A stretch of DNA of 64,000 bases from Nannocystis bainbridge (lineage in GTDB: Bacteria; Myxococcota_A; Polyangia; Nannocystales; Nannocystaceae), in contig NZ_JAQNDL010000001.1 of assembly GCF_028368995.1 (NCBI RefSeq), positions 1,696,001 through 1,760,000 of the forward strand, read 5' to 3'. Position 1 is the stretch's first letter; each line of letters begins with the position of its first letter. Under the pieces are notes generated by a model. That model was not told where the DNA came from, searched no databases, and saw nothing but the letters and a program-made list of their open reading frames with translations. Shown one piece after another: positions 1,795 through 58,661 of the stretch. The position numbers and the translations under genes are program-made.

Positions 1795-1830
1795 CATGTC
1801 CTCCACGACATGCCCGGAAAGACACCTTTG
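1728..1830. repeat. 14-bp-phased RRACATGTYY palindrome array
   Basis: CATG-type cores at 1731, 1745, 1759, 1773, then 1795, 1809, 1823. Lies between convergent gene ends. Confidence 0.85.
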
Positions 1831-1834
1831 TTCT

Positions 1835-4800
1835 TCACGGCTCCCGCGCCGCCAGCCACGCCTCTGCGCGCTGCAGCTCGCCCGCGCGCGACTTGTCGCG
1901 CCAGCCCGCGAGCGCCGCCGCGATCAGCGGGCGGGCCGCGGCCGGCACCTCGCGCGCCGCCCCTGTGAGGCCCTGCGCGCGCAGGAAGCGGGCCCGCAGC
2001 GCCGGCAAGTGGTCGGGCTCGGCGACCACCTCGTAGATCGCCAGCGCCTCACCGGCCAGCTCGGCCGTCTCCTCGAAGCGCTCGCGCGCCAGCGCCAGCC
2101 CGGCGAGCGCGACGATCGAGCCCGCGAGGATCAGGTTGTGCGGCGGCGCCAGGCGCTCGAGGTCGGCCCGCGCCTGTTGCAGGTCGGCTTCGGCCTCGTC
2201 GAGGCGCCCGAGCTTCACGCGGATCTCGCCGAGGATCACCGCGATCGCGGCGGCGTCGAGGCTGCTCTCGGCGGCAGCCAGGGCCGCGTGCATCTGCGCC
2301 AGCGGCCCTATCGCCTCGTCCGGGCGACCGATCGCGTCGAGGGCCCGGCCGCGGGCCGACAGCAGCCACTGGTATTTCGCCTGCGACGGCTCGGGCGTCG
2401 GCAAGCGAGCCAGCGCGCGCGCATACTCGGCCTCCATCCCCGCCGCGTCGCCCGCGAGCGCGAACAGCCGCACGCGCTCGCACAGCACCGCGTCGTACGT
2501 CATCGACGCCTCGGGCACCTCCGCCAGCGCCGCGTCGAGGTGCACGCGCGCCTCTGCCAGCAGCCCCTCGTCGAGCTCGACCAGCGCCATCCCGTGGCGG
2601 ATCATCCCGCGCACGTAGCCGTTGTCGAGGCTGTCGAAGCGCTGCTCGATCGACCGCATCGCCGCCAGCGCCTGCCGCGGCCGACCGAGGCGCCACAGCC
2701 CGTCGGCCAGCAGCCACGCGTGGCGCAGGTGCACCGCGTGGCGCGGCCCGAACAGCGCCTCCGAGGCCGCGGCGGCGCGGGCGTACAGCGCCACCATGTC
2801 CTCGTCGCGGTTCTGCTGGCGCGCCAGCAGCCCGAGGTTGGCGGTGGTCTCGAGGCCCTTCGGCGTGTCGCTGCGGCCGTGCCGCTCGCGCAGCGCCGCC
2901 GCCTGCTCCCAGTAGTCGCGGGTCGCCGGCAGGTCGCGGCTGGCGATCATCACCGCGCCCATGTTGTTGAGGAACTCGGCGTACAGATCGACGTCGCCCG
3001 CGACCCTGCGGTTGATCGCCGTCACCAGCGGGATCTCGGCGCGCGCCTCCTGCGGGCGGCTCAGCGGGATCGCCCGCAGATAGGCCCGCTTCGAGCTGGC
3101 CTGCGCCGCCACCGCGTCGTGCCCGGCTCCGATCGCGGCCAGCAGCGCCTCCGTGAACGCGCTCTCGGCCTCGGCGTGACGGCCCGCCTCCATCGCCAGG
3201 CTGCCGCGCTGCAGCAGCGCCTCGGCGCGCAGCGGCTCGTAGGTCAGCGCCGAGCTGTCCTTGAGGACATCTCCTACCAGCGCCTCGCCGAGCGCGTACT
3301 GGGCCGCGTCCTCGCGGACCTGCGCGCGCGCCAGGGCCTCGCGGTGGGCCTGCACGGCCACGCGCAGGTGCGGCTCGTCGGGCGGCGGGACCGCGGCGGT
3401 GAGCGCCTCGACATCGGCGCAGCGGGCCAGCGGCGGCAGCTCGGCGGTCGCCTGGACCACCGCCCCGACCCCGGCCGCGTCGACCTGCGTGAGCGCGAGC
3501 ACCAGCGCGTCGAGGCCGGCGCGCCGCTGGTCGAGGCACGCGGTGCGGAGGTCGAACAGCGGCGACGACTGCCGCGCCTCCACGTGGGCCACGCACGCCT
3601 CGTTGCGCATCTCGACCCATGAAGCCGCGTATCGATCGATCCGCCCCGGCACGCTCGCCAGCGCCTCCGTGGCCGCGGCCGTGCCCGCCTTCGTCAGCGC
3701 CGCGCGGACCGCCGCCGCGCGGGCCGGGTCCCATACGCCTGCCAGCTCGGCCTGCGCGTCGGGGCAGCGGGCTGCCTCCGGCCCGCGCTCCGCGGCGAAG
3801 AACGCCGCCGTCGCGGTCGCCACCGCCGTCAAGCCGAGCACCGCGAGGCGCCGGCGCGTCGCCCCCGGATCGTGCTCGAGCTCGGCCAGCAGCGCCGTCA
3901 TCGACGGGAAGCGCTCGTCTGGCGCGCTCGCCAGCCCGCGGCGCAGCGCCCGGAAGATCCGCGCCGGCACCGGCGTGCCCGCGGGCGGCGGCGCCACCTT
4001 GCCGCGCCGCAGCTCGGCCAGCAGCGTCGCCAGCGACGTCGTATCGAACGCCGGCTGCTTGTAGAGGCATTGATACAGCGACACGCAGAAGCTGAACTGA
4101 TCGCTGGCCGCCGTCGAGGGCTCGCCGCGGTGGGCCTCGGGCGACATATACGCCGGCGTGCCGAGGACCACCCCGGTGCGCGTCAGCGGGGCCAGGTGCG
4201 ACGCGGCCTGCTGGATGTGACGCGGCAGATCGGGCTCGGCCGGCGCCCCGTCGTCGGCCGCGCGGGCCAGCCCGAAGTCGAGCACCTTGACCGTACCGTC
4301 GTCGCCGACCATCACGTTGGCCGGCTTGAAGTCGCGGTGGATGAGGCCCGCGCGGTGGGCCGCCTCGAGCCCGCGGCCGGCGCGGACGAACACCGCCACG
4401 ATCTCGCGCCACGGCCGGTCCTGCTGGGCCCACGCGTCGAGCGACGCGCCGCGGACGAACTCCATCGCCACGAACACCTGATCGTCGTCGCGCCCGACCT
4501 CGTGGACCGTGACGATGTTGGGGTGCTGCAGCCGGGCCATCGCCTGCGCCTCGCGCATCAGTCGCCCGCGCGACAGCGAAAGGTCGCGCACCGACTCGGA
4601 GAGCAGCAGCTTGACCGCGACCTTGCGGTCGAGCAGGTCGTCGTAGGCCGCGTAGACCACCCCCATCCCGCCGCGCCCGATCACCCCCAGGATCTGGAAC
4701 CGCCCGATCTGCACCGGCGTCGTCCGGCGCGGGAACAGGGCCCGCTTGACCAGACGCTTGTCGAGCCCGACCTCGTCTGCCTCCGGCGTCGGCAGCCGCG

Positions 4801-43652: not shown

Positions 43653-43655
43653 GCC

Positions 43656-45884
43656 ATGAACGATCGCTGGCAGCAGCTCGAAGCGCTCGTGCAGGCCGCC
43701 CTCGATTGCTCCGTCGAGCGCCGCGGCGCCGTCGTGGCCGGCCTCACCGACGACCTCGACTTGCGCGCCGAGGCGCTCGAGCTGGCCGACGCCCACGACC
43801 GCGCCGGTGATTTCCTCGAGCCGTCGTCCGAGCCGCCGGACCCGACCGCCATCGGCCCCTACCGCGTGATCCGCCGCCTCGGCAGCGGCGGCATGGGCGA
43901 CGTCTATCTGGCCCGCCGCGACGACCAGGAGTTCGCGCGCGACGTCGCCGTCAAGCTGCTCGCGCCGGGGCTCTACGGCCGCGATTTCGTGCGCCGCTTC
44001 CGCGCCGAGCGCCAGATCCTCGCCCGCCTCGATCACCCCAACATCGCCCGCCTCCACGACGGCGGCGCCCACTTCGACGGCCGGCCCTACCTGGTGATGG
44101 AGCTCGTCGAGGGCGTGCCGCTCGACCGCTTCTGCGAGCAGCGGCGCCTCGGGCTGAGCGAGCGTCTGGGGCTCGTGCTCGCGGTGTGCGACGCCGTCGA
44201 CTACGCCCATCATCGCCTCGTCCTCCACCTCGATCTCAAGCCCGAGAACATCCTCGTCATGGCTGACGGCGCCCCCAAGCTGCTCGATTTCGGGGTCGCC
44301 AAGCTGATCGATCCAGCCAGCGCCGCCACCCTGCACACCACCCGTACCGGCCCGCGCCCGCACACCCCCCATTACGCCAGCCCCGAGCAGCGCGCCGGCG
44401 GCTCGCTCACCACCGCCAGCGACGTCTACTCGCTCGGCGTCGTGCTCTACCGGCTGCTCAGCGGTCGGCTGCCGCACCCCGAGGTCGGCGCGGGCGACAG
44501 CGCCTCCTCGCCCCTGCCGCGCCGGCCGAGCGCCCCCGATCCGCACGGAGCGATCCACGACACCGGCGAGCCCGAGCTCACGGCGCGGCTGCGTCGGCAG
44601 CTCGCGGGCGACCTCGACGCGATCGTGCTCAAGGCCCTGCGCCACGAGCCCGCGCTGCGCTACGACACCGTCGACAAGCTGGCCGAGGACCTCCGCCGCC
44701 ATCGCCGGGGCCTGCCCGTGCTGGCGCGCCAGGGCACCTTCCGCTACCGCGCCGGCAAGCTCGTGCGCCGGCACGCGCGCGCGCTGATCGTGGCCGCGCT
44801 GGGCCTCGCGCTGCTGGTCGGCTTCTCCGTCGCCATGACGATCCAGGCCGCACGGCTCGCGGAGGAGCGGCGCACCGCCGAGACCATCGGCGCCTTCCTC
44901 GTCGACCTCGTCACCCACGCGCCCAGCGACGACACCCTCGCGCGCGAGCTCACCGTCGGCCAGATCCTCGACTATGGCCGCAGCCTGCTCGCGCAGCCGC
45001 ACGTGTACGCGAGCCCCGAGATCGACACCGAGCTGCGCATCGTGCTGGCGCGGCTGCTCCGCAGCGCCGAGCAGCACGACGAGGCCGAGGCGCTGCTGCA
45101 GCGGGCGCTCGCCGATCGCCTGGCGCAGCGCGGCGAGGGTCATGGCGACGTCGCCGAGGTCCGGCTCGAGCTCGGGCGGCTGAGCTTCGAGCGCGACCGC
45201 GAGGCCGAGGCCGAGCGCGAGCTGGTGCCCGCGCTCGCGGTCCTCGAGCGTGAGCGCGACCTGGCCGACCGCGACATCGTCACCGCGCGGCTCCTCATGA
45301 CCCAGGTGTCGCCCCTGCAGCGGAACATGAACGACCCCGCGCCGCTGCTGGACCGCGCGCTCGCGCCATTGGCCGCCCGTGCCGTCACCACGCGCGACCA
45401 CCTCGACCTTTTGACGCTCCGCAACTTCCGCGCTCTGCTGGTCCGGCGCGTCGACCTCGAAGCCGCCATCCTCGAGCTCGAGGCGATCGTCGCCGAGTTC
45501 ACCGCGCGCGGCCTGCCGCCCTACCCCGGCCTCACCCAGTCGCTCATGGACCTCGGCACCTCGTACCGCTGGGCCGGTCGGCCGCGCGAGGCCATCGCCA
45601 CCTTCGAGCGCGCGCTGCGGATCCACGACGAGGGCCAGGACCTCCCGCCGTGGCACCGGCTGCCGTTCGAGATCGGCCTGGCCCGGGCCCACCGCGCCGC
45701 GGGCGATCGCGTCGCCAGCGAGCGCATCCTCCGGCGGGCGCTCGCGCTGTCGGTCGCCAGCCTCCACGAGAACCACGAGGAGACCCGCATCATCGCCAGC
45801 TACCTCGGCGACGAGCTGCGCGACGCGGGCCGCCTCGCCGAGCTCGCGGCCCACGAGCGCCGGTTCCCGCCGCGGGGGCATTGA
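43656..45884 (+). CDS. Ser/Thr protein kinase cognate to the ECF sigma factor
   Basis: GSGGMGDVY, RFRAERQILARLDHPNIARL, HLDLKPEN, DFG and TPHYASPE motifs, a TM segment and a TPR-like C-terminus. Confidence 0.92.
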   Translation: MNDRWQQLEALVQAALDCSVERRGAVVAGLTDDLDLRAEALELADAHDRAGDFLEPSSEPPDPTAIGPYRVIRRLGSGGMGDVYLARRDDQEFARDVAVKLLAPGLYGRDFVRRFRAERQILARLDHPNIARLHDGGAHFDGRPYLVMELVEGVPLDRFCEQRRLGLSERLGLVLAVCDAVDYAHHRLVLHLDLKPENILVMADGAPKLLDFGVAKLIDPASAATLHTTRTGPRPHTPHYASPEQRAGGSLTTASDVYSLGVVLYRLLSGRLPHPEVGAGDSASSPLPRRPSAPDPHGAIHDTGEPELTARLRRQLAGDLDAIVLKALRHEPALRYDTVDKLAEDLRRHRRGLPVLARQGTFRYRAGKLVRRHARALIVAALGLALLVGFSVAMTIQAARLAEERRTAETIGAFLVDLVTHAPSDDTLARELTVGQILDYGRSLLAQPHVYASPEIDTELRIVLARLLRSAEQHDEAEALLQRALADRLAQRGEGHGDVAEVRLELGRLSFERDREAEAERELVPALAVLERERDLADRDIVTARLLMTQVSPLQRNMNDPAPLLDRALAPLAARAVTTRDHLDLLTLRNFRALLVRRVDLEAAILELEAIVAEFTARGLPPYPGLTQSLMDLGTSYRWAGRPREAIATFERALRIHDEGQDLPPWHRLPFEIGLARAHRAAGDRVASERILRRALALSVASLHENHEETRIIASYLGDELRDAGRLAELAAHERRFPPRGH

Positions 45885-47863: not shown

Positions 47864-47991
47864 GATCGATGCGCGTCGGAAGACGCGGGGTCTGGAGAGC
47901 TGGGTGACGGCGGGCACGGAGCGGCGTAGCGGTCCCTCGCCACGGCGGGGCCCTCCCAGGCAACGTGCTCGGCGCCCTCGGGCTTCGATGG

Positions 47992-48016
47992 CAATATGTC
48001 TCTTGGGACATGTTCG
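47992..48016. repeat. RRACATGTYY pair
   Basis: Cores at 47995 and 48009, 14 bp apart. Confidence 0.6.
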
Positions 48017-48595
48017 TATGTGCTTCGGCGATTGAGGGGCATGCGCGCCGGCGTCGGCGTGCCCGCACATGAGAAGGCGTGGCGGCCGGCTCGCCTCGCT
48101 CGATGCTCGCGCGCTTGCGAGGACGCGGGTCGCCGCGCTCGCCTCGCGCGCTGTCATCACTCCAGCGCGCTGGTTCCGAGTCGCTCGCCCGCATCGTCAC
48201 ACGACCGACCTGGACCGTCCGAGTTTGTGATGAGCGGGACCCCCGCAGATCGGCCGACTCGCGTCAGTGTCCACGGCGCCGACTGGCACGATCTCGACTC
48301 ACCCCGGCAGCCTGCATCGGGCGGTGGATGTGGCATCGCGCTCGCGTACACTCGCCCGTGCTTCGCGTCTGCCGCGGTCCTGCTCGCTCGCGCGCGACAT
48401 GGTTCCATGGGCCCGTCTTGTGGTCGTGAAACCTCGCGCGGACTGGTGCGACATTTGTCCGATCAGGACCTCACGAGAGGCGTCGAGGAGCCGGTCATGC
48501 GAGGACCGAATGCACGCCTGCCGCACACCCTGACGTTTCGCCGTGACGAAGCTGCTTTCGGCTGGCGTCGCCTTTGTGGTATCTTTACGCAGTTC

Positions 48596-48946
48596 ATGGC
48601 CTCGGCCGCGGCTGCAAAGGGGAGATCGGTGTTGGCGCTGCTCATCGCAGCGTTCACGCTCCTGTTTTCTGCCGCGCCGGACTCGCTCTGGACGGCGGAG
48701 CACGGCGCTGATGACAGCACCGTCTCCGTCGCGGGGCAGCATGACGGCTCCCTGGTCTCGCGGCACGAGCAGTCCTCCGTGCCTTCGCCGCGCCGCGATC
48801 GGAGCAACCCGGACCCCGTGCGGTTCGACCCTGTCATGGTGGTCGATCACGCATGGGACCCGTGGCCGACGCCGATAACGAGCGTGACCGCCGGGATGCG
48901 CCGTATTCGCAGTCAGCACGCGCGTGGCCCGCCGGCCGTCGGCTGA
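48596..48946 (+). CDS. Small exported leader protein ending in RGPP (candidate ribosome-arrest peptide)
   Basis: Signal-like N-terminus (KGRSVLALLIAAFTLLFSAA), disordered middle, C-terminus RRIRSQHARGPPAVG-stop, and position directly upstream of a co-oriented operon. Confidence 0.68.
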   Translation: MASAAAAKGRSVLALLIAAFTLLFSAAPDSLWTAEHGADDSTVSVAGQHDGSLVSRHEQSSVPSPRRDRSNPDPVRFDPVMVVDHAWDPWPTPITSVTAGMRRIRSQHARGPPAVG

Positions 48947-49170
48947 CTTCGTGACGCTCGTGGAGCCCTACGCTCCGTGACCGCCGAAGTCCGCGAATCG
49001 CAGCCGACGACGACAGCCTGAGAACCAGGTCCCTGGCCACCCTTCGGGTGATACGCGCCATGCCGCATCGACGTGCCGTCGACAGCGCCTTGGGCCGTCA
49101 CCACTCCTGCGACAACGAGCCCCCCGACGCATGGGGCCACGCCCGAGCCTTGCCCGAAATCGACCCTTCG

Positions 49171-51242
49171 ATGACTGACCAAACGCGAGTGTCCGCCCGC
49201 GTGCTCGAGCTCCTCGCGGAGAGCGCCGGCCACGGACTGTCGCTGCACCTGGCCCACGAGGCCGCCCGCAGCGTCCGCTTCAACGACGGCGACTGGCTCG
49301 GGCCGGCGGCCAAGGCCCTGCGCCGGGCCGGGCTCAAGGCGTCTCGCTTCGCCTTCGACGGCCCGCGCGAGCTCCTGCGCCTGCGCACGCTCGAGACCCC
49401 GGCGGTCACCCGCGTCGGCAAGCGCTGGCTCCTGATGCTCGGCGAGCGCGCCGGCGTGCTCGACCTGCGCGTCGTCGACGACCTCGGCGAGCAGGTGCTG
49501 CCGCTGCGCGGGCCGGCGCTGGCCGGCTGGCTCGCCGACCACGGCGCGACCTGGCCGCTGACCTGGCTGGCGGTCGAGCCGCAGCTCATGTACGCCGCCC
49601 TGACGCAGGCGCCGACCGACGCGCGCCGGCTGCTGCGGGCCCTCCGGCTCGAGCGCCGCGGGATCTACGTCGTGCTCGTCTACGGCGTCGCCATCGCCGC
49701 GGCCTCGCTCGCCGTCCCGCTGGCCACCCAGGCGCTGGTCAACACGATCTCGGCCACGGCGATGCTCGACCAGATCGTGATCCTGGCGATCTTGCTGGCG
49801 TTGACGCTGAGCGCGGTCGCGTTCCTGCGGGTGCTGCAGCTGGTGGCCGTCGAGCGGATCCACCGCCGCTGGTGGGTGCGCGGCGCGACCGACTGGATCC
49901 GGCGCATGGGCCAGACGTCGCGCGCGGCCCGGCAGTCGGCCTCGACCCGCGACCTGACCAACCGCTTCCTCGACGTCGCCATGCTGCAAAAAGACGTCGC
50001 GGCGCTGCTGCTGAACGGCTCGTCGCTGGTGCTGGTGATGCTGGCCAGCCTGGTGCTGCTGGGCTTCTACCACCCGGTCCTGCTGGCCTTCGACGCGGTG
50101 CTGATCTTCAGCATCGGCGCCGTCCTGCTCGCCGGCATCGGCGCGACCGCCGGGGCCAAGCGCGAGGCCAGCGCGCGCTGGGCCGTGTTCGCGTGGATGG
50201 ACGAGGTCGCCGGCGGCCGCCTCACCTTCTCGAACCCCCGCGGCCGCGCCCTCGCCGACGGCCGCGGCGAGTTCCTGATCCGCGACTGGCTGGACGCGCG
50301 CGGCCGCTACTTCAAGCCGCTGCTCCGCCACGTGATCGCCGGCGCCGGCCTCGAGGTCATCGCCACCGTCGCGGTGCTGGCGATCGGCGGCTCGCTGGTG
50401 ATCCAGGGCGAGCTCGAGCTCGGCCAGCTGGTGGCGGCCTCGGTCCTGGTGTCGCAGATCGGCTCCGGCGTCGGCCGCCTCGGCCGCCAGCTCGACCCGA
50501 TCTACGAGGGCATCGCCTCGGTCGCGTCGATGGGCAAGGCCCTCGACGCCGACCTCGAGCCGAGCGGCGGCGAGGTCCTGCCGCGCCGCCCCGTCCCGCT
50601 CGGGCTCGAGCTGGTCGACGACGCCGGCACCGTGGTCCTGGCCCTCAAGCCCGGCGAGCGCGCGGCGCTGGTCGGCGCCACCGACAGCCACAGCCGCGTG
50701 CTCGACCTGATCTACGGGTTCTTCGGCCGCACCTGGCTGCCGAACCTGTCGGCCCGGCTCGACGGCCACGACGTGCACCTGCTCGAGCTCGAGAGCCTGC
50801 GCGACCAGGTCGCGCTGGTCCGCGGCGGCGAGATCGTGGCCACCACCGCGCTGCAGAACCTCGTCGGCGCCAACTGGACCGGCCACGCCTCCGAGCTCGA
50901 TACACTGCTCGACCTCGTCGACCTCCAGCCCGCGCTGCAGCGGCTCCCCAACGCCCTGCAAGAGGAGCTGCTGCCCGACGGCGACGCCGGTCCGCTGACC
51001 GAGACCGAGGTCCGCCGGGTCGTGCTGGTGCGAGCCCTGATCGCCGCCCCGCGGCTGCTGCTGCTCGACCTCGGGCTCGACCGCCTCGGCCTGGCGGCCC
51101 CGCGGCGCGCCGCCCTGCTCGACTGGATCTTCGACCGCCGCCGACCGTGGACCGTGCTCGTCGTCACCGACAGCGTCCACAGCCGCGACATCCTGGCCCG
51201 CTGCGACCAACAACAAGCGATCCGTATCGGAGGGAGCGAGCG

Positions 51243-51246
<4 letters not shown>
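49171..51246 (+). CDS. T1SS-type ABC transporter (C39-like domain, TMD, degenerate NBD)
   Basis: HlyB/PCAT architecture. Walker A reads GATDSHSR, signature LTETE, Walker B LLLLDLG and switch VVTD. Confidence 0.85.
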
Positions 51247-52565
<1,319 letters not shown>

Positions 52566-52566
52566 G

Positions 52567-54306
52567 ATGTCGACGCGAACCCTGCGACTCGCGAGCGCGG
52601 CCCTCCTGGGCGCCGGCCTGGTGGTGCCCGTCTCGGCAGCAGCCGCGGCGACCCCGCCCGCGACGGCCTCGACCCGGACAACCCCGGCCCCGACCCCGCC
52701 CCCCGGCCTCGCGCCGGCCCCGACCCCGACGGCCCCGACCCCCTCCCCGGTCCCGCGCGGCCGCACGCCGGCCACCATCCCTGAGAACCCGGTGCGAGAG
52801 GCCACCCGCGACCCCTCGCGCGACACCACACGCGACACCACGCGCGATCCGCCGCGGACCCCGGCGTGGGAGCCCGAGCCGCGCGAGCGGGCCGAGGAGG
52901 CCGCGCCGAAGGAGCGCCGCGGCCGGGTGCTGACATTGGCCGAGGTGCTCGACAGCGTCGAGCAACGCGACCCGCGGATGGAGGCCGCCGAGCTCGGGAT
53001 CCGCGGCGCGGAGGGCCAGGCCCGCTCGGCCCGCGGCACCTACGACCCGGTCCTGCGCGGCCGCGCCACGCTCGAGCCGATGTTCCGCAACGCCATCCTC
53101 GACACCCGCGTCGAGCAGCCGACGCCGCTGTGGGGCATGACCGCGTGGGTCGGCTGGCAGGTCGGCGTCGGCCGGCGGCCCTACTACAACACCACCCTCG
53201 ACAGCATCCTCGACATCGACGACCGCGTCGGCAGCCGCGACGTGCGCTCGACCGCCGGCACCCTGACGGCCGGGCTCACGCTGCCGCTGTGGCGCGACCG
53301 CAGCATCGACCGCCGGCGCGCCAACATCCGCCAGTCGAAGATGGAGACCGAGCGCATGCAGGAGGCCCGCGACGCCCGCCTGCTCGAGCTCGAGATCGAG
53401 GCGGCCACCAAGTACTGGACCTGGGTCGCCAACGGGCTCCGCCTCGAGATCGAGATGATGCTGCTCGACCTGGCGCAGACCCGCGACGAGGCGCTGCAGC
53501 GGCGCATCGAGCTCGGCGCCCTCGACCCGCTGGCCGGCGTCGACAACCAGCGCCTGATCCTCGACCGCGAGGGCCGCGTGGTCACGGCCGAGCGCGCGTT
53601 CCAGCAGGCCGGGCTCGAGCTGTCGCTGTACCTGCGCGACGCCAACGGCCAGCCGGTCGTGCCCGACCCCAACCGCCTGCCGAGCCGCCTGCCCGAGATG
53701 GTCAGCCCGGAGGCCGGCGGCAACATCGAGAGCGAGATCGGCGAGGCGCTCGAGCGCCGGCCCGACCGCAAGGCCCGCATGTTCCTCCGCTCGCAGGCCG
53801 AGGTCGAGCTGCGCTGGGCCAAGAACCAGCGCGCGCCGCGGGTCGAGCTGTCGGCCTGGGCCTCGCGCTACATGGGCCGGCCGCTGATCCCGGCCTTCAC
53901 CCGCAACGGCGCGGTAGTCTCGCTGCTGTTCGAGATCCCGATCCCGCTGCGAGCGTCCCGCGGCCAGCTCGAGGCGACCCGCGCGGCCGCCGAGAGCGTC
54001 GCCGCCGAGCTGCGCTTCCTCGACGACACGATCGCCGTGGCGATCCGCGACGGCCACTCCGCGCTGGTCGCCGCCTACCGCCGCGCCCGCCTGGCCAACC
54101 GCGAGGTCGAGCTGTCACGCCAGCTCGCGGCCTCCGAGTACCGCCGGTTCCAGCTCGGCGCCGGCGACCTGCTGCTCGTCAACCTGCGCGAGGTCGCCAG
54201 CGCCGACGCGGCCAACAACGAGATCCAGGCCGTCGCCGACTACTTCGTCGCCAAGGCGACGCTCGAGGTCTCGCTCGGGCGGGGCGTCCAGTCCGTGGCG
54301 CCGTGA
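52567..54306 (+). CDS. TolC-family outer membrane efflux protein with a Pro/Thr-rich N-terminal extension
   Basis: Signal peptide, LTLAEVL motif, two OEP helical repeats and RFQLGAGDLLLVNLRE. Confidence 0.9.
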   Translation: MSTRTLRLASAALLGAGLVVPVSAAAAATPPATASTRTTPAPTPPPGLAPAPTPTAPTPSPVPRGRTPATIPENPVREATRDPSRDTTRDTTRDPPRTPAWEPEPRERAEEAAPKERRGRVLTLAEVLDSVEQRDPRMEAAELGIRGAEGQARSARGTYDPVLRGRATLEPMFRNAILDTRVEQPTPLWGMTAWVGWQVGVGRRPYYNTTLDSILDIDDRVGSRDVRSTAGTLTAGLTLPLWRDRSIDRRRANIRQSKMETERMQEARDARLLELEIEAATKYWTWVANGLRLEIEMMLLDLAQTRDEALQRRIELGALDPLAGVDNQRLILDREGRVVTAERAFQQAGLELSLYLRDANGQPVVPDPNRLPSRLPEMVSPEAGGNIESEIGEALERRPDRKARMFLRSQAEVELRWAKNQRAPRVELSAWASRYMGRPLIPAFTRNGAVVSLLFEIPIPLRASRGQLEATRAAAESVAAELRFLDDTIAVAIRDGHSALVAAYRRARLANREVELSRQLAASEYRRFQLGAGDLLLVNLREVASADAANNEIQAVADYFVAKATLEVSLGRGVQSVAP

Positions 54307-54342: not shown

Positions 54343-56421
54343 GTGGAGCCGACACTGCAGACCAGCGTGGATGAAGCCGCACCGATCCCCGCGCGCGTGT
54401 TCCAGCTGCTCGCCGCGGCGACCGAGCAGAAGCTCGCGCCGCCGCCGACGCACGCGCCTCGCGAGGCGTTCGGGCTCGAGGCGTGGGACGTCGGCGCCGC
54501 CCGGGCGGTCCAGCAGGCGGGCCTCAAGGCCGCCCGCTTCAACATCGAGACCGCCGACGACCTGGCGCGCCTGTGCGCCCTCGATGCCCCGGCGTTCTCC
54601 CTGATCGGCGGCCGCTGGGTCGTGCTGCTCGGGACCCGCCGCGGCGCGCTCGACCTGGTGGTGATCGACGGCCGCAGCGAACGCCGCCAGCGCGTGCGCC
54701 CGGCCGAGCTGATGGCGTGGATGCAGCCCCGCGGAGCGCCGCGCCCGAGCCACCCGTGGCTGGCGATCGAGCCGCGGATGATGCTGGCGCCGCTGTCGTT
54801 CCCGCCGACCGAGTTCATCCGGTTGATGCGGACCTTCGTGCTCGAGAAGCGCGACGTGTACGTCATCAGCGTCTACGGCGCGGTCATGGCGGTCGTCTCG
54901 CTGGCGGTCCCGATCTCGGCCCAGGCGCTCGTCAACACCATCTCGGTCAACGCGCTGGCGCAGCCGATCTTGATGCTCTCGGTCATGTTGATGGTGGCCC
55001 TCGGCGCGATCGCGGTGCTGCGCGTGATGCAGTTCACGGTCGCCGAGCGGATCTACCGCCGCCTGTGGGTGCGCGGCGTGGCCGACTGGATCCGCCGCAC
55101 GTCCCGGGCCTCGCGAGAGTCGCGGCAGGAGATCTCGAACCGCGAGCTGTGCAACCGCTACATGGACATGCCGATCTTGCAGAAGGACTTCTGGTCGCTG
55201 CTGCTCGACGGCACCTCGCTGACGATGGTGAGCGGGGCCAGCCTGGTGCTGCTGGCGTTCTATCACCCGCTGCTGCTCGCGTTCGACGTCGTGCTGCTGG
55301 TCGGCATCGCCCTCGTGATGCTCGCGGGCCTCGGCGCCGAGGGGCGCGCGGTCTACGAGTCCCACACCAAGTGGTCGCTGTTCGGCTGGATCGACGACAT
55401 CGGCAACATGCGGATCGCGTTCTCGAACCCGCGCGGGCGGGCGCTGGCCGACGCCCAGGGCGAGGTGCTGGTGCGCAACTGGCTGCAGGCGCGCGGCAGC
55501 TATTACTCGACCCTGCTGCGCCACATCGTCACCGGCGCCGCGCTCGAGGTGCTGGCGACCGTCGGCGTGCTGGCGATCGGCGGCTGGCTGGTGATCTCGC
55601 GCGAGCTGACGCTCGGCCAGCTGGTGGCGGCGTCGGTGCTGGTGTCGCAGATCGGCGCCGGGGTCCGCGGCCTCGGGCAGCAGCTCGACCCGATCTACGA
55701 GGGCGTGGCCGCGATCGAGACCCTCGGCCGCACGCTCGACGCCAAGCTCGAGCCGCTCGGCGGCGAGGTCCTGCCGACGCTGGCGGGGCCGATGGCGGTC
55801 GACCTCAGCGTCGAACACACGCAGCTGGCGATCGAGCCCGGCCAGCGCGTCGGCCTGGTCGGCGGCAACGACGGCCACAGCCGCGTGCTCGACCTGCTCT
55901 ACGGGCTCTACGACCGCAAGCCGCCGGTGACGCTGGCGGGCCGCCTCGACGGCCGCGACGTCGCCCAGCTCGAGCTCGACAGCCTGCGCGGGCAGGTGGC
56001 CCTGGTCCGCGGCGGCGAGCTCGTGGGCGCGTCGCTGCTCGAGAACCTGGTCGGCCCCGACTGGCAGGGCGACCACACCGAGCTCGACGAGCTGCTCGAC
56101 CTCGTCGACCTCCGCACCACCGTGCTCGCCCTGCCCGGCGGCCTCGATCAAGAGCTGCTGCCCGACGGCGACGGCGGCCAGCTGAGCGAGGCGCAGATCC
56201 GCCGGGTGGTGCTGCTGCGCGCGCTGGTCACCCAGCCCCGCCTGCTGCTGATCGATCAGGGCCTCGACCGGCTCGACCTCACCCCGCCGCAGCGCACGGC
56301 CCTGCTCGACTGGGTCTTCGACCGCGCCCGCCCGTGGACCCTGCTCGTCGTCACCGACAGCGTCGAGAGCGACGAGCTGCTGGCCCGCTGCGACATGCAG
56401 CACGCGCTCGACGCGGCGTGA
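54343..56421 (+). CDS. Second T1SS-type ABC transporter, paralog of 49171-51246, with degenerate NBD
   Basis: Walker A reads GGNDGHSR, signature LSEAQ, Walker B LLLIDQG and switch VVTD. Colinear similarity to the first ABC. Confidence 0.85.
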   Translation: MEPTLQTSVDEAAPIPARVFQLLAAATEQKLAPPPTHAPREAFGLEAWDVGAARAVQQAGLKAARFNIETADDLARLCALDAPAFSLIGGRWVVLLGTRRGALDLVVIDGRSERRQRVRPAELMAWMQPRGAPRPSHPWLAIEPRMMLAPLSFPPTEFIRLMRTFVLEKRDVYVISVYGAVMAVVSLAVPISAQALVNTISVNALAQPILMLSVMLMVALGAIAVLRVMQFTVAERIYRRLWVRGVADWIRRTSRASRESRQEISNRELCNRYMDMPILQKDFWSLLLDGTSLTMVSGASLVLLAFYHPLLLAFDVVLLVGIALVMLAGLGAEGRAVYESHTKWSLFGWIDDIGNMRIAFSNPRGRALADAQGEVLVRNWLQARGSYYSTLLRHIVTGAALEVLATVGVLAIGGWLVISRELTLGQLVAASVLVSQIGAGVRGLGQQLDPIYEGVAAIETLGRTLDAKLEPLGGEVLPTLAGPMAVDLSVEHTQLAIEPGQRVGLVGGNDGHSRVLDLLYGLYDRKPPVTLAGRLDGRDVAQLELDSLRGQVALVRGGELVGASLLENLVGPDWQGDHTELDELLDLVDLRTTVLALPGGLDQELLPDGDGGQLSEAQIRRVVLLRALVTQPRLLLIDQGLDRLDLTPPQRTALLDWVFDRARPWTLLVVTDSVESDELLARCDMQHALDAA

Positions 56422-57419: not shown

Positions 57420-58661
57420 TTACATCAGCTGGCGGCGCTCGAACTCCGAGCGGAGCTTGCGCAGGGCCTGCTCCTGGAGCTGACGGATGCGCTCGCGCGA
57501 CAGCGAGTAGTTGGCGCCGATCTCCTTGAGGGTGAGCTCGGGCTCGCCGTCCATGCCGACGCGCTTGCGCAGGATGTCGGCCTCCATCGGCGACAGCTTC
57601 TCGAACACCTCGAGCAGGGCGTCCTGGAGGACGGCCGAGTCCATCAGCTCGGACGGGGCGACCTGGGTCGCGTCGACCAGGGTGTCGGCCAGGCTGCCCT
57701 CGCCGTCGCGGGTGGCCGGCAGCGAGAGGCTCAGCGGCTGGTCGATCAGCGACCAGCTCATCCGCTGGATGCGCTCCATGCTGATGCCGGTGGCCGAGGA
57801 CAGCTCCTCGTCGGTCGGGCAGCGGCCGTACATCACCTCGTACTCGCGGCGGGCGCGGCTGACCTTCTTGCACGCGTCGATCATGTGCAGGGGCAGGCGG
57901 ACGCTGCGGTCGGTGTCGACGATGGCGCGGGTGATGGCGTAGCGGATCCACCAGGCGGCGTAGGTGGCGAAGCGGCAGCCGCGGGTCGGGTCGAAGCGGT
58001 CGACGGCCTTCATCAGGCCCATGTTGCCGTCCTGGATCAGGTCCTGCAGCGGGATCGAGCTGCGGGCGAAGCGGCGGGCGATGGCGACCACGAGGCGGAG
58101 GTTGGAGCGCACGAAGGCGTTCTTGGCCAGCATCACCGCGTTGTGGGCCCGGCGGGCGGCGGCGACGTAGCGGACGAACGGGGCGCTGTCGCGGTACGGC
58201 GGCTTGACCTTCATGTTGGTGGCGACGCCGCGGTCGCTCTCGAGCCCGGTGAGGTCGGCGAGGATCGAGTCAGCCACCACGCTGTCGACGTCGGCGAACA
58301 CGAGGCGCTCGATGAGGGCGTTGCGCGCGGCGGTGAAGGCCTCCTCGTGGCTCTTGAGGACGCGGTCGCGGAGGGCGCGCGAGGTCTTCTCGACCGCCTC
58401 GAGCACGGCCGGCGGGACCGACTCGGCCGACAGGCGCTCGGCCACCAGGGCGCAGATCGCCGAGACGAACGGCGGGTAGGCGAGGAAGGCGGCCCACATG
58501 GTCTTGCGCAGCTCGATGAGGCGCGTCGCGGCGACGAGCTCCTCGTCTTTACCCATCACCGTGACATCGGCGAGCTCTCGGAAGTACCGCGCGGTCGTGG
58601 CACCACCGAACGAAGAGGTGGAGGTGCTGGCATTCCCGGAAGTGGCGATTTGGTTGAGCAT
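57420..58661 (-). CDS. RpoD/SigA-family sigma-70 factor lacking region 1.1 (alternative, group 2-like)
   Basis: NLRLVVAIARRF, DLIQDGNMGLMKAVDRFD, FATYAAWWIR and TLKEIG..YSLSRERIRQL motifs. Confidence 0.92.
   Translation of the reverse strand: MLNQIATSGNASTSTSSFGGATTARYFRELADVTVMGKDEELVAATRLIELRKTMWAAFLAYPPFVSAICALVAERLSAESVPPAVLEAVEKTSRALRDRVLKSHEEAFTAARNALIERLVFADVDSVVADSILADLTGLESDRGVATNMKVKPPYRDSAPFVRYVAAARRAHNAVMLAKNAFVRSNLRLVVAIARRFARSSIPLQDLIQDGNMGLMKAVDRFDPTRGCRFATYAAWWIRYAITRAIVDTDRSVRLPLHMIDACKKVSRARREYEVMYGRCPTDEELSSATGISMERIQRMSWSLIDQPLSLSLPATRDGEGSLADTLVDATQVAPSELMDSAVLQDALLEVFEKLSPMEADILRKRVGMDGEPELTLKEIGANYSLSRERIRQLQEQALRKLRSEFERRQLM

Follow-up and report, generated by a model that had tools for sequence, protein, structure and literature searches.

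The closest described systems are the arrest peptides of the RAPP/RGPP class, small proteins with an N-terminal signal peptide or transmembrane segment (SP/TM), and an Arg-Ala-Pro-Pro or Arg-Gly-Pro-Pro motif close to the C-terminus, encoded before same-strand genes with a variety of functions (Fujiwara 2025, PMC12992588). The main text of that survey presents RGPP as the most context-tolerant arrest, resistant to elongation factor P (EF-P), and as the most avoided tetrapeptide in many phyla; all seven S. lividans examples tested showed motif-dependent stalling, and the release of such arrests outside the Sec/YidC systems is posed as an open question (PMC12992588). Here we describe an open reading frame (ORF) ending in RGPP that stands before an operon of ATP-binding cassette (ABC)-like, HlyD and TolC genes in Nannocystis bainbridge, within a stretch of 64,000 nucleotides that we call the window (positions 1,696,001 to 1,760,000 of the forward strand of contig NZ_JAQNDL010000001.1, assembly GCF_028368995.1). 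The ORF probably encodes an arrest peptide of this class and acts in cis as a regulatory leader.

For RQH-family peptides that carry RGPP, stalling has been demonstrated with ribosomes of E. coli as well as of B. subtilis (Fujiwara 2024, PMC10987492), and RAPP/RGPP upstream ORFs before non-Sec genes have already been published (PMC12992588). Coupling of a stall to downstream genes is described for CruR, in which the ribosome stalled at RAPP keeps Rho from terminating transcription in a 162-nt spacer until freed by copper (PMC9426467), and for CutF, in which copper prolongs the stall and opens a stem-loop that hides the ribosome-binding site (RBS; PMC9973294). The text of the CutF study also catalogues CutF-like exported, Pro-ended leaders before components of resistance-nodulation-division (RND) systems, and it mentions TnaC, which stalls beside its stop codon and blocks Rho (PMC9973294).

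A conserved leader gene ends in RGPP

The leader and its parts lie in the window as follows:

48596..48946, plus strand: leader ORF, first gene of the unit, 116 aa (ATG at 48596, TGA at 48944-48946)
48620..48676, plus strand: N-terminal hydrophobic helix, residues 9-27 (Kyte-Doolittle), with Lys/Arg before it
48734..48802, plus strand: conserved mid-region, residues 47-69, HD.P..SRQQE ... S.RRD (family alignments)
48863..48874, plus strand: WP(L/T)P motif, residues 90-93, with the Trp in 13 of 14 members
48923..48934, plus strand: Arg-Gly-Pro-Pro codons, presumed from the motif's conservation to be where arrest occurs, with Pro112 at the P and Pro113 at the A site

The original prediction had described a 116-aa ORF with a hydrophobic N-terminus and an unstructured spacer, carrying RGPP at 48923-48934 and placed 224 nt before an ABC gene, and we find the ORF to be as described. 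Its RGPP codons read CGT GGC CCG CCG, its product ends in ...RIRSQHARGPPAVG with the residues AVG after RGPP, and the 224 nt run from the leader stop to the ATG (49171) of the first ABC-like gene. The reading frame is open already from 47996 (316 codons), but its first part is without coding signal, which appears only from about 48600. From there on, the G+C content at third codon positions (GC3, 0.82-0.88) and at second positions (GC2, about 0.5) has the pattern of a plus-strand gene in the leader frame, although the GC3 signal lies below that of the neighbouring genes (about 1.0). The public gene call (P0005, 149 aa) puts the start 33 codons too far upstream: conservation among homologues begins at the ATG at 48596, not at the upstream public start. 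The roughly 730 nt 5' of the leader (47864-48595) have no coding signal in any frame. Neither Pfam nor NCBIfam has a family that matches the leader protein.

A translated search of 61 related genomes for leader homologues returned 13 homologous places (E <=1.7e-6), all in six genomes of the genus Nannocystis; one of them is a second, paralogous copy in the same genome, on a different contig (L025). Full-length homologues are 34-45% identical to the leader, and the 12 homologous frames retrieved all end in [A/P]RGPP plus 2-4 residues, followed by TGA. Two divergent members found with the family profile likewise end in RGPP. In the resulting 14-member alignment, in which identity to the window protein is 27-45% and length 113-120 aa, RGPP is invariant (14/14), and the other columns without variation are Met1, Arg67 and three in the helix. 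The RGPP codons themselves vary synonymously among members (CGC/CGT, GGC/GGT/GGG, CCG/CCT/CCC). Against 1.84 billion representative proteins the family profile gave 21 matches: the 18 whose C-terminus is intact all finish with [A/P]RGPP and 1-5 further residues, the remaining three are cut or frame-broken, and those named in their sources are labelled 'hypothetical protein'. Metagenome contigs, searched with a single divergent member as query, gave loci with the RGPP ending in five cases out of five. In one species (L031/L052) a frame break has cost a leader copy its N-terminal part, yet the ending ARGPPADRC is kept. With no profile match in 62 genomes of 16 other genera in the order, the family appears to be restricted to Nannocystis.

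A single RGPP ending is not beyond chance, and its significance comes from conservation: in this 11-Mb genome (72.5% G+C), 621 six-frame ORFs of at least 40 aa carry R[AG]PP in their last 14 residues. RGPP is depleted in the genome's confident coding ORFs, with 32 occurrences observed and 71 expected from composition, while the reversed tetrapeptide PPGR occurs 75 times and permuted tetrapeptides 129-141 times in the same ORFs; the depletion matches the proteome-wide avoidance reported for RGPP (PMC12992588).

The ratio of nonsynonymous to synonymous substitution rates (dN/dS) is 0.13-0.47 in six close homologue pairs and 0.56-0.91 in four more distant ones. Given the GC3 frame signal, the homologues within the genus and the dN/dS of 0.13-0.47, the leader ORF is by all these signs a real, translated gene. 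A 319-nt contig from a soil RNA library, about 98% identical to 48778-49095 (four differences and one gap), spans the 3' half of the leader ORF and the spacer up to the conserved element described below, and both differences within the ORF fall on third codon positions. This support comes from one run, in which 5% of sampled words matched and DNA carry-over is possible, and the other RNA-library pieces shown are short and diverged, leaving 48300-48777 and the first ABC-like gene without near-identical cover, a gap that carries no weight; the contig is weak evidence that the leader and spacer region is transcribed.

N-terminal helix, mid-region and RGPP keep a fixed spacing

Every one of the 14 members has a hydrophobic N-terminal segment (Kyte-Doolittle 19-residue maximum 1.85-2.43) preceded by one to three Lys or Arg residues. 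In an AlphaFold2 model built from the family alignment, a helix at residues 4-24 is the sole confident segment; past it, block means of the predicted local distance difference test (pLDDT) are 48-67, and the rest of the leader is predicted to be unstructured. The helix residues ALLIAVxTALLF are nearly invariant. This helix is likely a signal-anchor or signal peptide.

The distances between the conserved parts hardly vary. From the invariant Arg67 to Pro112 there are 45 aa in the window, 45-47 aa in 13 of the 14 members and 53 in the remaining one; the Trp90 column stands 22 aa from Pro112 in 13/14, with no indels, and the helix end stands 81-83 aa from the Arg of RGPP, again in 13/14. We modelled the P- and A-site assignment of Pro112 and Pro113 on CruR toeprinting (PMC12992588). 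With the ribosome stalled there, established tunnel dimensions would place the WPLP segment inside the ribosomal exit tunnel and the S-x-R-R segment at or just beyond the translocon. The 14-member alignment has no conserved Cys column and no His cluster, and the leader is therefore unlike a copper site of the CruR or CutF type.

The leader heads envelope transport genes of several kinds

Downstream of the leader, the window contains four genes that overlap or stand 1-36 nt apart:

49171..51246, plus strand: ABC-exporter-like protein 1 (ABC1), 691 aa, with an N-terminal extra domain and weak ABC_membrane and ABC_tran matches
51243..52565, plus strand: HlyD-type periplasmic adaptor (HlyD_3, Biotin_lipoyl_2, HlyD_D23)
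52567..54306, plus strand: TolC/OEP-type outer-membrane factor (Pfam OEP, E = 1.9e-25)
54343..56421, plus strand: ABC-exporter-like protein 2 (ABC2), 692 aa, with degenerate ATPase motifs

The HlyD start overlaps the ABC1 stop (ATGA). ABC1 has as its best NCBIfam match the NHLP bacteriocin export ABC2 family, far under the cut-off, and the closest solved relatives of the window's ABC2 are ABCB1-type exporters and HlyB, via the nucleotide-binding domain region only. A pattern search found neither a Walker A Lys, nor LSGGQ, nor a Walker B Glu in either ABC-like protein; the P-loop position reads VGATDSHSRV in one and VGGNDGHSRV in the other, and their ABC_tran scores are 19 and 38 bits. The operon thus appears to encode a tripartite system without a recognisable ATPase: it has the HlyD adaptor and TolC factor of type I secretion and no competent ABC ATPase site. 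Among 76 related loci the Walker A pattern is kept in 37 ABC genes, LSGG[Q/M] in just five. A complex prediction from the HlyD and leader alignments scored 0.00, which is no answer and weighs neither way. Flanking the unit are a Ser/Thr protein kinase with tetratricopeptide repeats upstream (43653-45884, plus strand) and, on the opposite strand downstream, a full-length sigma-70-family factor with regions 2, 3 and 4 (57420-58661, minus strand).

All 12 genomic homologues of the leader stand upstream of an HlyD homologue (76-93% identical), and in all loci examined the downstream genes are on the same strand as the leader. A full-length ABC1 homologue lies between leader and HlyD in seven of the 12 loci and a remnant in one; some loci have leader and HlyD without any ABC gene. 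At the paralogous locus of the same genome the leader is followed by an orphan HlyD and then by class-3 lipase and Ser/Thr kinase genes, so that both of the genome's HlyD genes of this subfamily carry a leader. Divergent relatives of the leader are followed by different machinery:

L128: CusA/CzcA-family RND pump, 99 nt downstream of the leader stop; score 913 bits (cut-off 701)
L129: CzcB-like adaptor followed by an RND pump
L130: OEP gene; farther downstream, an ORF with an RND-pump-like N-terminus (by eye)
L131: OEP gene
L133: OmpL-like porin
L134: ORF sharing its N-terminus with the L133 porin (by comparison with L133)

Because relatives also head CzcA-type RND pumps and a porin, the leader module appears not to be specific to the ABC-HlyD-TolC machine. 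The original prediction had proposed an export-monitoring peptide in control of this machine; monitoring of export by the machine itself is not supported, and the variety of downstream machines argues against monitoring of any one particular exporter. Outside the genus the ABC-HlyD-TolC arrangement is common, with an ABC gene before HlyD in 76 of the 80 best loci. At the closest sister-genus locus (L053), where HlyD is 63% identical, a divergently transcribed LysR-type-like ORF (1796-2704, minus strand) occupies the leader's place. The LysR-type assignment was made by eye from the N-terminal helix-turn-helix region; a gene of this type in that position is consistent with the leader being a regulatory device.

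Elements upstream of the leader and in the spacer

Three further elements flank the leader ORF:

48577..48585, plus strand: extended -10-like element TGGTATCTT (TGnTAnnnT), 10 nt 5' of the leader ATG
48945..48991, plus strand: stem-loop starting within the stop codon (-25.9 kcal/mol, z = -2.75)
49068..49096, plus strand: second hairpin and conserved tail, consensus GACACGCG..CGCGGTGTC, then AGGCCGCGCCTTGGG

The sequence TGNTANNNT ends 10-15 nt before the ATG in 12 of the 14 family loci and occurs in just 33 of 20000 random 35-nt stretches of the genome. This suggests that TGGTATCTT is a putative promoter giving a leaderless or nearly leaderless mRNA. A scan of 48300-49300 found no sigma-70 consensus promoter and no intrinsic terminator. 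The upstream genes that flank the leader in the window are not adjacent to its homologues, and since these genes are not shared, the conserved unit begins at the -10-like element. A CTCACG/CTCACA motif stands at about -60 to -70 from the leader ATG in 11/14 loci, some 40-45 nt 5' of the -10-like element; the window has only a loose version of this motif, which may be a regulator site.

The spacers between leader and next gene are untranslated and measure 99-440 nt among members. Each of the 14 loci has a stem-loop whose start is no more than about 13 nt from the stop. In all 11 of the other ABC/HlyD-type loci the second spacer element starts 114-138 nt after the leader stop, and the window has it at about +136; its position is independent of the distance to the next gene. 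Elsewhere in the genome its 20-mer (at most three mismatches) is found at the paralogous locus only, and the inner stem of the hairpin differs between paralogue groups, which align in different registers. We rejected a second small ORF starting from the element's TTG or ATG: its length ranged from 14 to 718 codons and its frame relative to the next gene was inconsistent. Rfam has no family matching 48400-49300 at E <=1.

A model for the leader

We read the leader as an arrest peptide because it is a conserved, membrane-targeted ORF, because RGPP is its most constrained part, and because it always stands before envelope transport genes; these comparisons give the original prediction of an arrest leader good support, and the mechanism that follows is a proposal. 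In the model, translation of the leader would begin from the 5' end of an mRNA that is leaderless or almost so, and the leader's N-terminal helix would direct the ribosome-nascent-chain complex to the Sec/YidC pathway. Once Pro112 and Pro113 occupied the P and A sites, peptide-bond formation would fail and the ribosome would stall, with WPxP in the exit tunnel and S-x-R-R, some 45 residues earlier in the chain, level with the translocon or slightly past it. A ribosome stalled two to four codons before the stop would, given its usual footprint, sit over the ORF's end, stop codon included, and over the beginning of the 224-nt spacer. A force that pulls on or holds the exported chain would then set the duration of the stall, and that duration would decide expression of the ABC-like/HlyD/TolC/ABC-like genes. 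Coupling could follow either of two routes: the stall may block Rho-dependent termination in the spacer, as in CruR, or it may remodel the RNA structure of the spacer, as in SecM or CutF.

What the leader would respond to is a matter for a more tentative proposal. That its helix is nearly invariant and its exported motif conserved speaks for some specific interaction more than for simple monitoring of Sec. It is conceivable, if rather doubtful, that the leader is a portable co-translational envelope sensor: HD.P..SRQQE ... S.RRD would sit at the periplasmic mouth of the translocon, where a ligand, the membrane potential or a partner protein would set the stall time, and the module would have been copied before three unrelated classes of outer-membrane-spanning transport. 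These would be the tripartite exporter with ABC-like subunits that lack ATPase motifs, the CzcA-type RND pumps and the OmpL-like porin. Such a sensor, if real, would define the first arrest-peptide regulon for envelope efflux.

Several findings weigh against reading the leader as an arrest peptide. According to the main text of the RAPP/RGPP survey, the motif alone is insufficient and adjacent upstream residues matter, and arrest can be ribosome-specific: with E. coli ribosomes, six of the seven S. lividans peptides were mainly full-length, and for the seventh the arrested and full-length amounts were about the same (PMC12992588). Upstream ORFs ending in RxPP, which the original prediction expected before homologous operons in myxobacteria, Planctomycetes and Bacteroidetes, did not turn up. 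No credible R[AG]PP leader ORF was present at 75 non-Nannocystis HlyD loci, and an ORF combining a hydrophobic segment with a Pro-Pro tail was present at none of 68 such loci; the R[AG]PP scan itself gave 17 plus-strand matches (75 loci) against 24 on the minus strand (80 loci), none with a hydrophobic segment. The window leader has evolved fast, with dN/dS of 0.64 and 0.91 against its orthologues.

The spacer also lends no decisive support to either route by which a stall could reach the genes, and the proposed RNA hairpin or hidden RBS found no statistical support. Compared with shuffled sequences, the stop-proximal stem-loops gave mixed results (z from -3.09 to +1.79, with 5/14 at -2.4 or below), and the window copy of the second hairpin is degenerate (TCGACG-TGC-CGTCGA, then CAGCGCCTTGGGCC). 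RNAalifold on five orthologues produced a long-range fold with an unfavourable covariation term (+7.84), and on 12 loci a covariation term of -0.01, which lends no support to an RNA switch. The 12-locus fold pairs the Arg-Gly-Pro codons (CGCGGnCC) with GGCCGCG of the spacer element, each pair forming in 10-12 of the 12 loci; both sides are invariant and the pairing is hence uninformative, and the window copy breaks three of the seven pairs. As for a Rho loading site, the best C-over-G 78-nt window lies at the 27th-75th percentile of random genome stretches, and no clear Shine-Dalgarno sequence precedes ABC1. Finally, the conserved helix and mid-region, and purifying selection (dN/dS <1) along the whole leader, would also be compatible with a protein whose mature form is the active one.

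Alternative explanations

Such a mature protein could be a small single-pass membrane or periplasmic one, an accessory subunit or trans-acting regulator of tripartite pumps comparable to CzcI or to AcrZ, a small helix that binds a pump; RGPP would then be a structural or recognition motif. This would account for selection over the entire ORF, and for a helix (ALLIAVxTALLF) and mid-region motif conserved far beyond what a mere export signal needs. However, the sole invariant block outside the helix is RGPP, always 1-5 residues from the stop and avoided in proteomes because of ribosome stalling, and the protein is predicted to be unstructured past its helix. Clusters named CzcI-family or DUF2946 are among the nearest named in language-model similarity (0.90-0.91, to be taken as a lead only), and CzcI, encoded upstream of czcCBA, has been suggested to be a metal-sensing regulator (PMC9973294); yet the long spacer and the position as first gene are typical of leaders, and one small protein would have to serve three different kinds of transport gene. 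We consider this explanation unlikely on its own, although it and the arrest-leader reading are not mutually exclusive.

It is far less probable that the exporter carries the leader itself as cargo (a type I substrate or bacteriocin-like precursor), with the conserved C-terminus as secretion signal. The position directly 5' of the exporter would suit cargo, as would the operon's best, though weak, NCBIfam matches to NHLP bacteriocin export components, and type I substrates do bear C-terminal signals. But Lys/Arg followed by a hydrophobic helix indicates targeting by Sec or the signal recognition particle, not a type I or Gly-Gly leader; members also stand before RND pumps, a porin or HlyD without an ABC gene; and both ABC-like proteins are without ATPase motifs.

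That the leader is a chance open frame in G+C-rich DNA with a coincidental RGPP, as the 621 six-frame R[AG]PP endings in the genome and a frame of 316 codons with a noncoding-like early part might suggest, is refuted to near certainty by full-length homologues and paralogues, dN/dS <0.5, conserved length, synonymous changes in the motif codons and a family profile with as few as 21 matches in 1.84 billion proteins.

Implications

Confirmation of stalling would widen the reach of RGPP arrest peptides to tripartite envelope exporters, and the Nannocystis loci would then form a natural series in which one sensor module leads to ABC-like/HlyD/TolC, heavy-metal-efflux RND (HME-RND) and porin outputs. 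The geometry of the leaders is unusually rigid (22, 45-47 and 81-83 aa). The series would be useful for studying arrest release outside Sec/YidC, and it would also serve for the route from stall to gene (Rho or RNA structure) and for the function of an exporter with ATPase-dead ABC subunits. For annotation, the start of the leader gene is corrected and a family so far called 'hypothetical protein' gets a name.

Comparison with known systems

The Nannocystis leaders share with the published RAPP/RGPP class an N-terminal SP/TM, an RGPP near the C-terminus, a patchy and narrow range, and avoidance of the motif elsewhere (PMC12992588). By the marks that define the RAPP/RGPP (RQH) group, the family has a conserved near-terminal R-[A/G]-P-P, an N-terminal SP/TM, and a length under 300 aa with same-strand downstream genes. 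Its helix and mid-region are conserved, which is not so in the secDF-linked S. lividans example (PMC12992588). The downstream groups given for that class are TonB-dependent receptors, YcnI, PCu(A)C, PepSY, DsbA/thioredoxin, extracytoplasmic function (ECF) sigma factors and sec genes (PMC12992588); its main text, as distinct from figures and appendix, has no mention of ABC transporter, HlyD, TolC, efflux, RND, porin, transporter or Nannocystis.

CruR (DUF2946, Bordetella pertussis) resembles the Nannocystis leader in being the first gene of its operon, with a long G+C-rich spacer (162 against 224 nt), in being poorly structured with an arrest near the stop, and in keeping another conserved motif a constant number of residues from the arrest motif (PMC9426467). 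The two differ in that CruR combines RAPP with an invariant copper-sensing CXXC, whereas the Nannocystis leaders combine RGPP with no conserved Cys; in that CruR precedes a TonB-dependent importer and the Nannocystis leader exporters; and in that CruR uses Rho, whereas C-over-G at the Nannocystis spacer is not above background (PMC9426467). The DUF2946 profile gave no match for the window protein and none for any of the 14 members at E <=10.

CutF-like proteins, including CopL and CzcI, are likewise small exported proteins with a C-terminal Pro-rich, stalling-like motif at the head of an operon, and their frequent neighbours, the OEP, ACR_tran and HlyD_D23 genes of RND systems, also adjoin the divergent leader members (PMC9973294). 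The CutF sensing motif stands 45 aa from the C-terminal motif, which is the spacing of the invariant Arg67, and the CutF study places it in the same way, at or past the translocon during the stall (PMC9973294). In contrast, metal motifs rich in Cys or His define the CutF-like proteins and are absent from the Nannocystis leaders; most CutF spacers are shorter than 100 nt, against 99-440 nt here, and have a stem-loop that hides the RBS; C. metallidurans CzcI, unlike the Nannocystis leaders, has no Pro motif (PMC9973294). The text of the CutF survey does not include the ABC-like/HlyD/TolC context (PMC9973294).

With SecM, VemP, MifM, ApdA and ApdP the leader has in common the order of export signal, spacer and arrest motif near the stop; it is unlike them in that its downstream genes are not secA, secDF or yidC. 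A leader peptide that controls a transporter operon by ribosome stalling is also familiar from BmrB, which senses drugs upstream of bmrCD. Drug-sensing leaders and TnaC are short, cytosolic and governed by a small-molecule effector, whereas the Nannocystis leader is 113-120 aa long, membrane-targeted and equipped with an intrinsic arrest motif. The original prediction had offered the operon context as one not known to have been characterised. In the literature text searched, figures and supplements lying outside the search, there is no mention of an RGPP leader ahead of an ABC-like/HlyD/TolC operon, so that the setting is new to that extent, while the general principle had already been published. 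What is new about the Nannocystis leaders is the family and its context; the principle is not.

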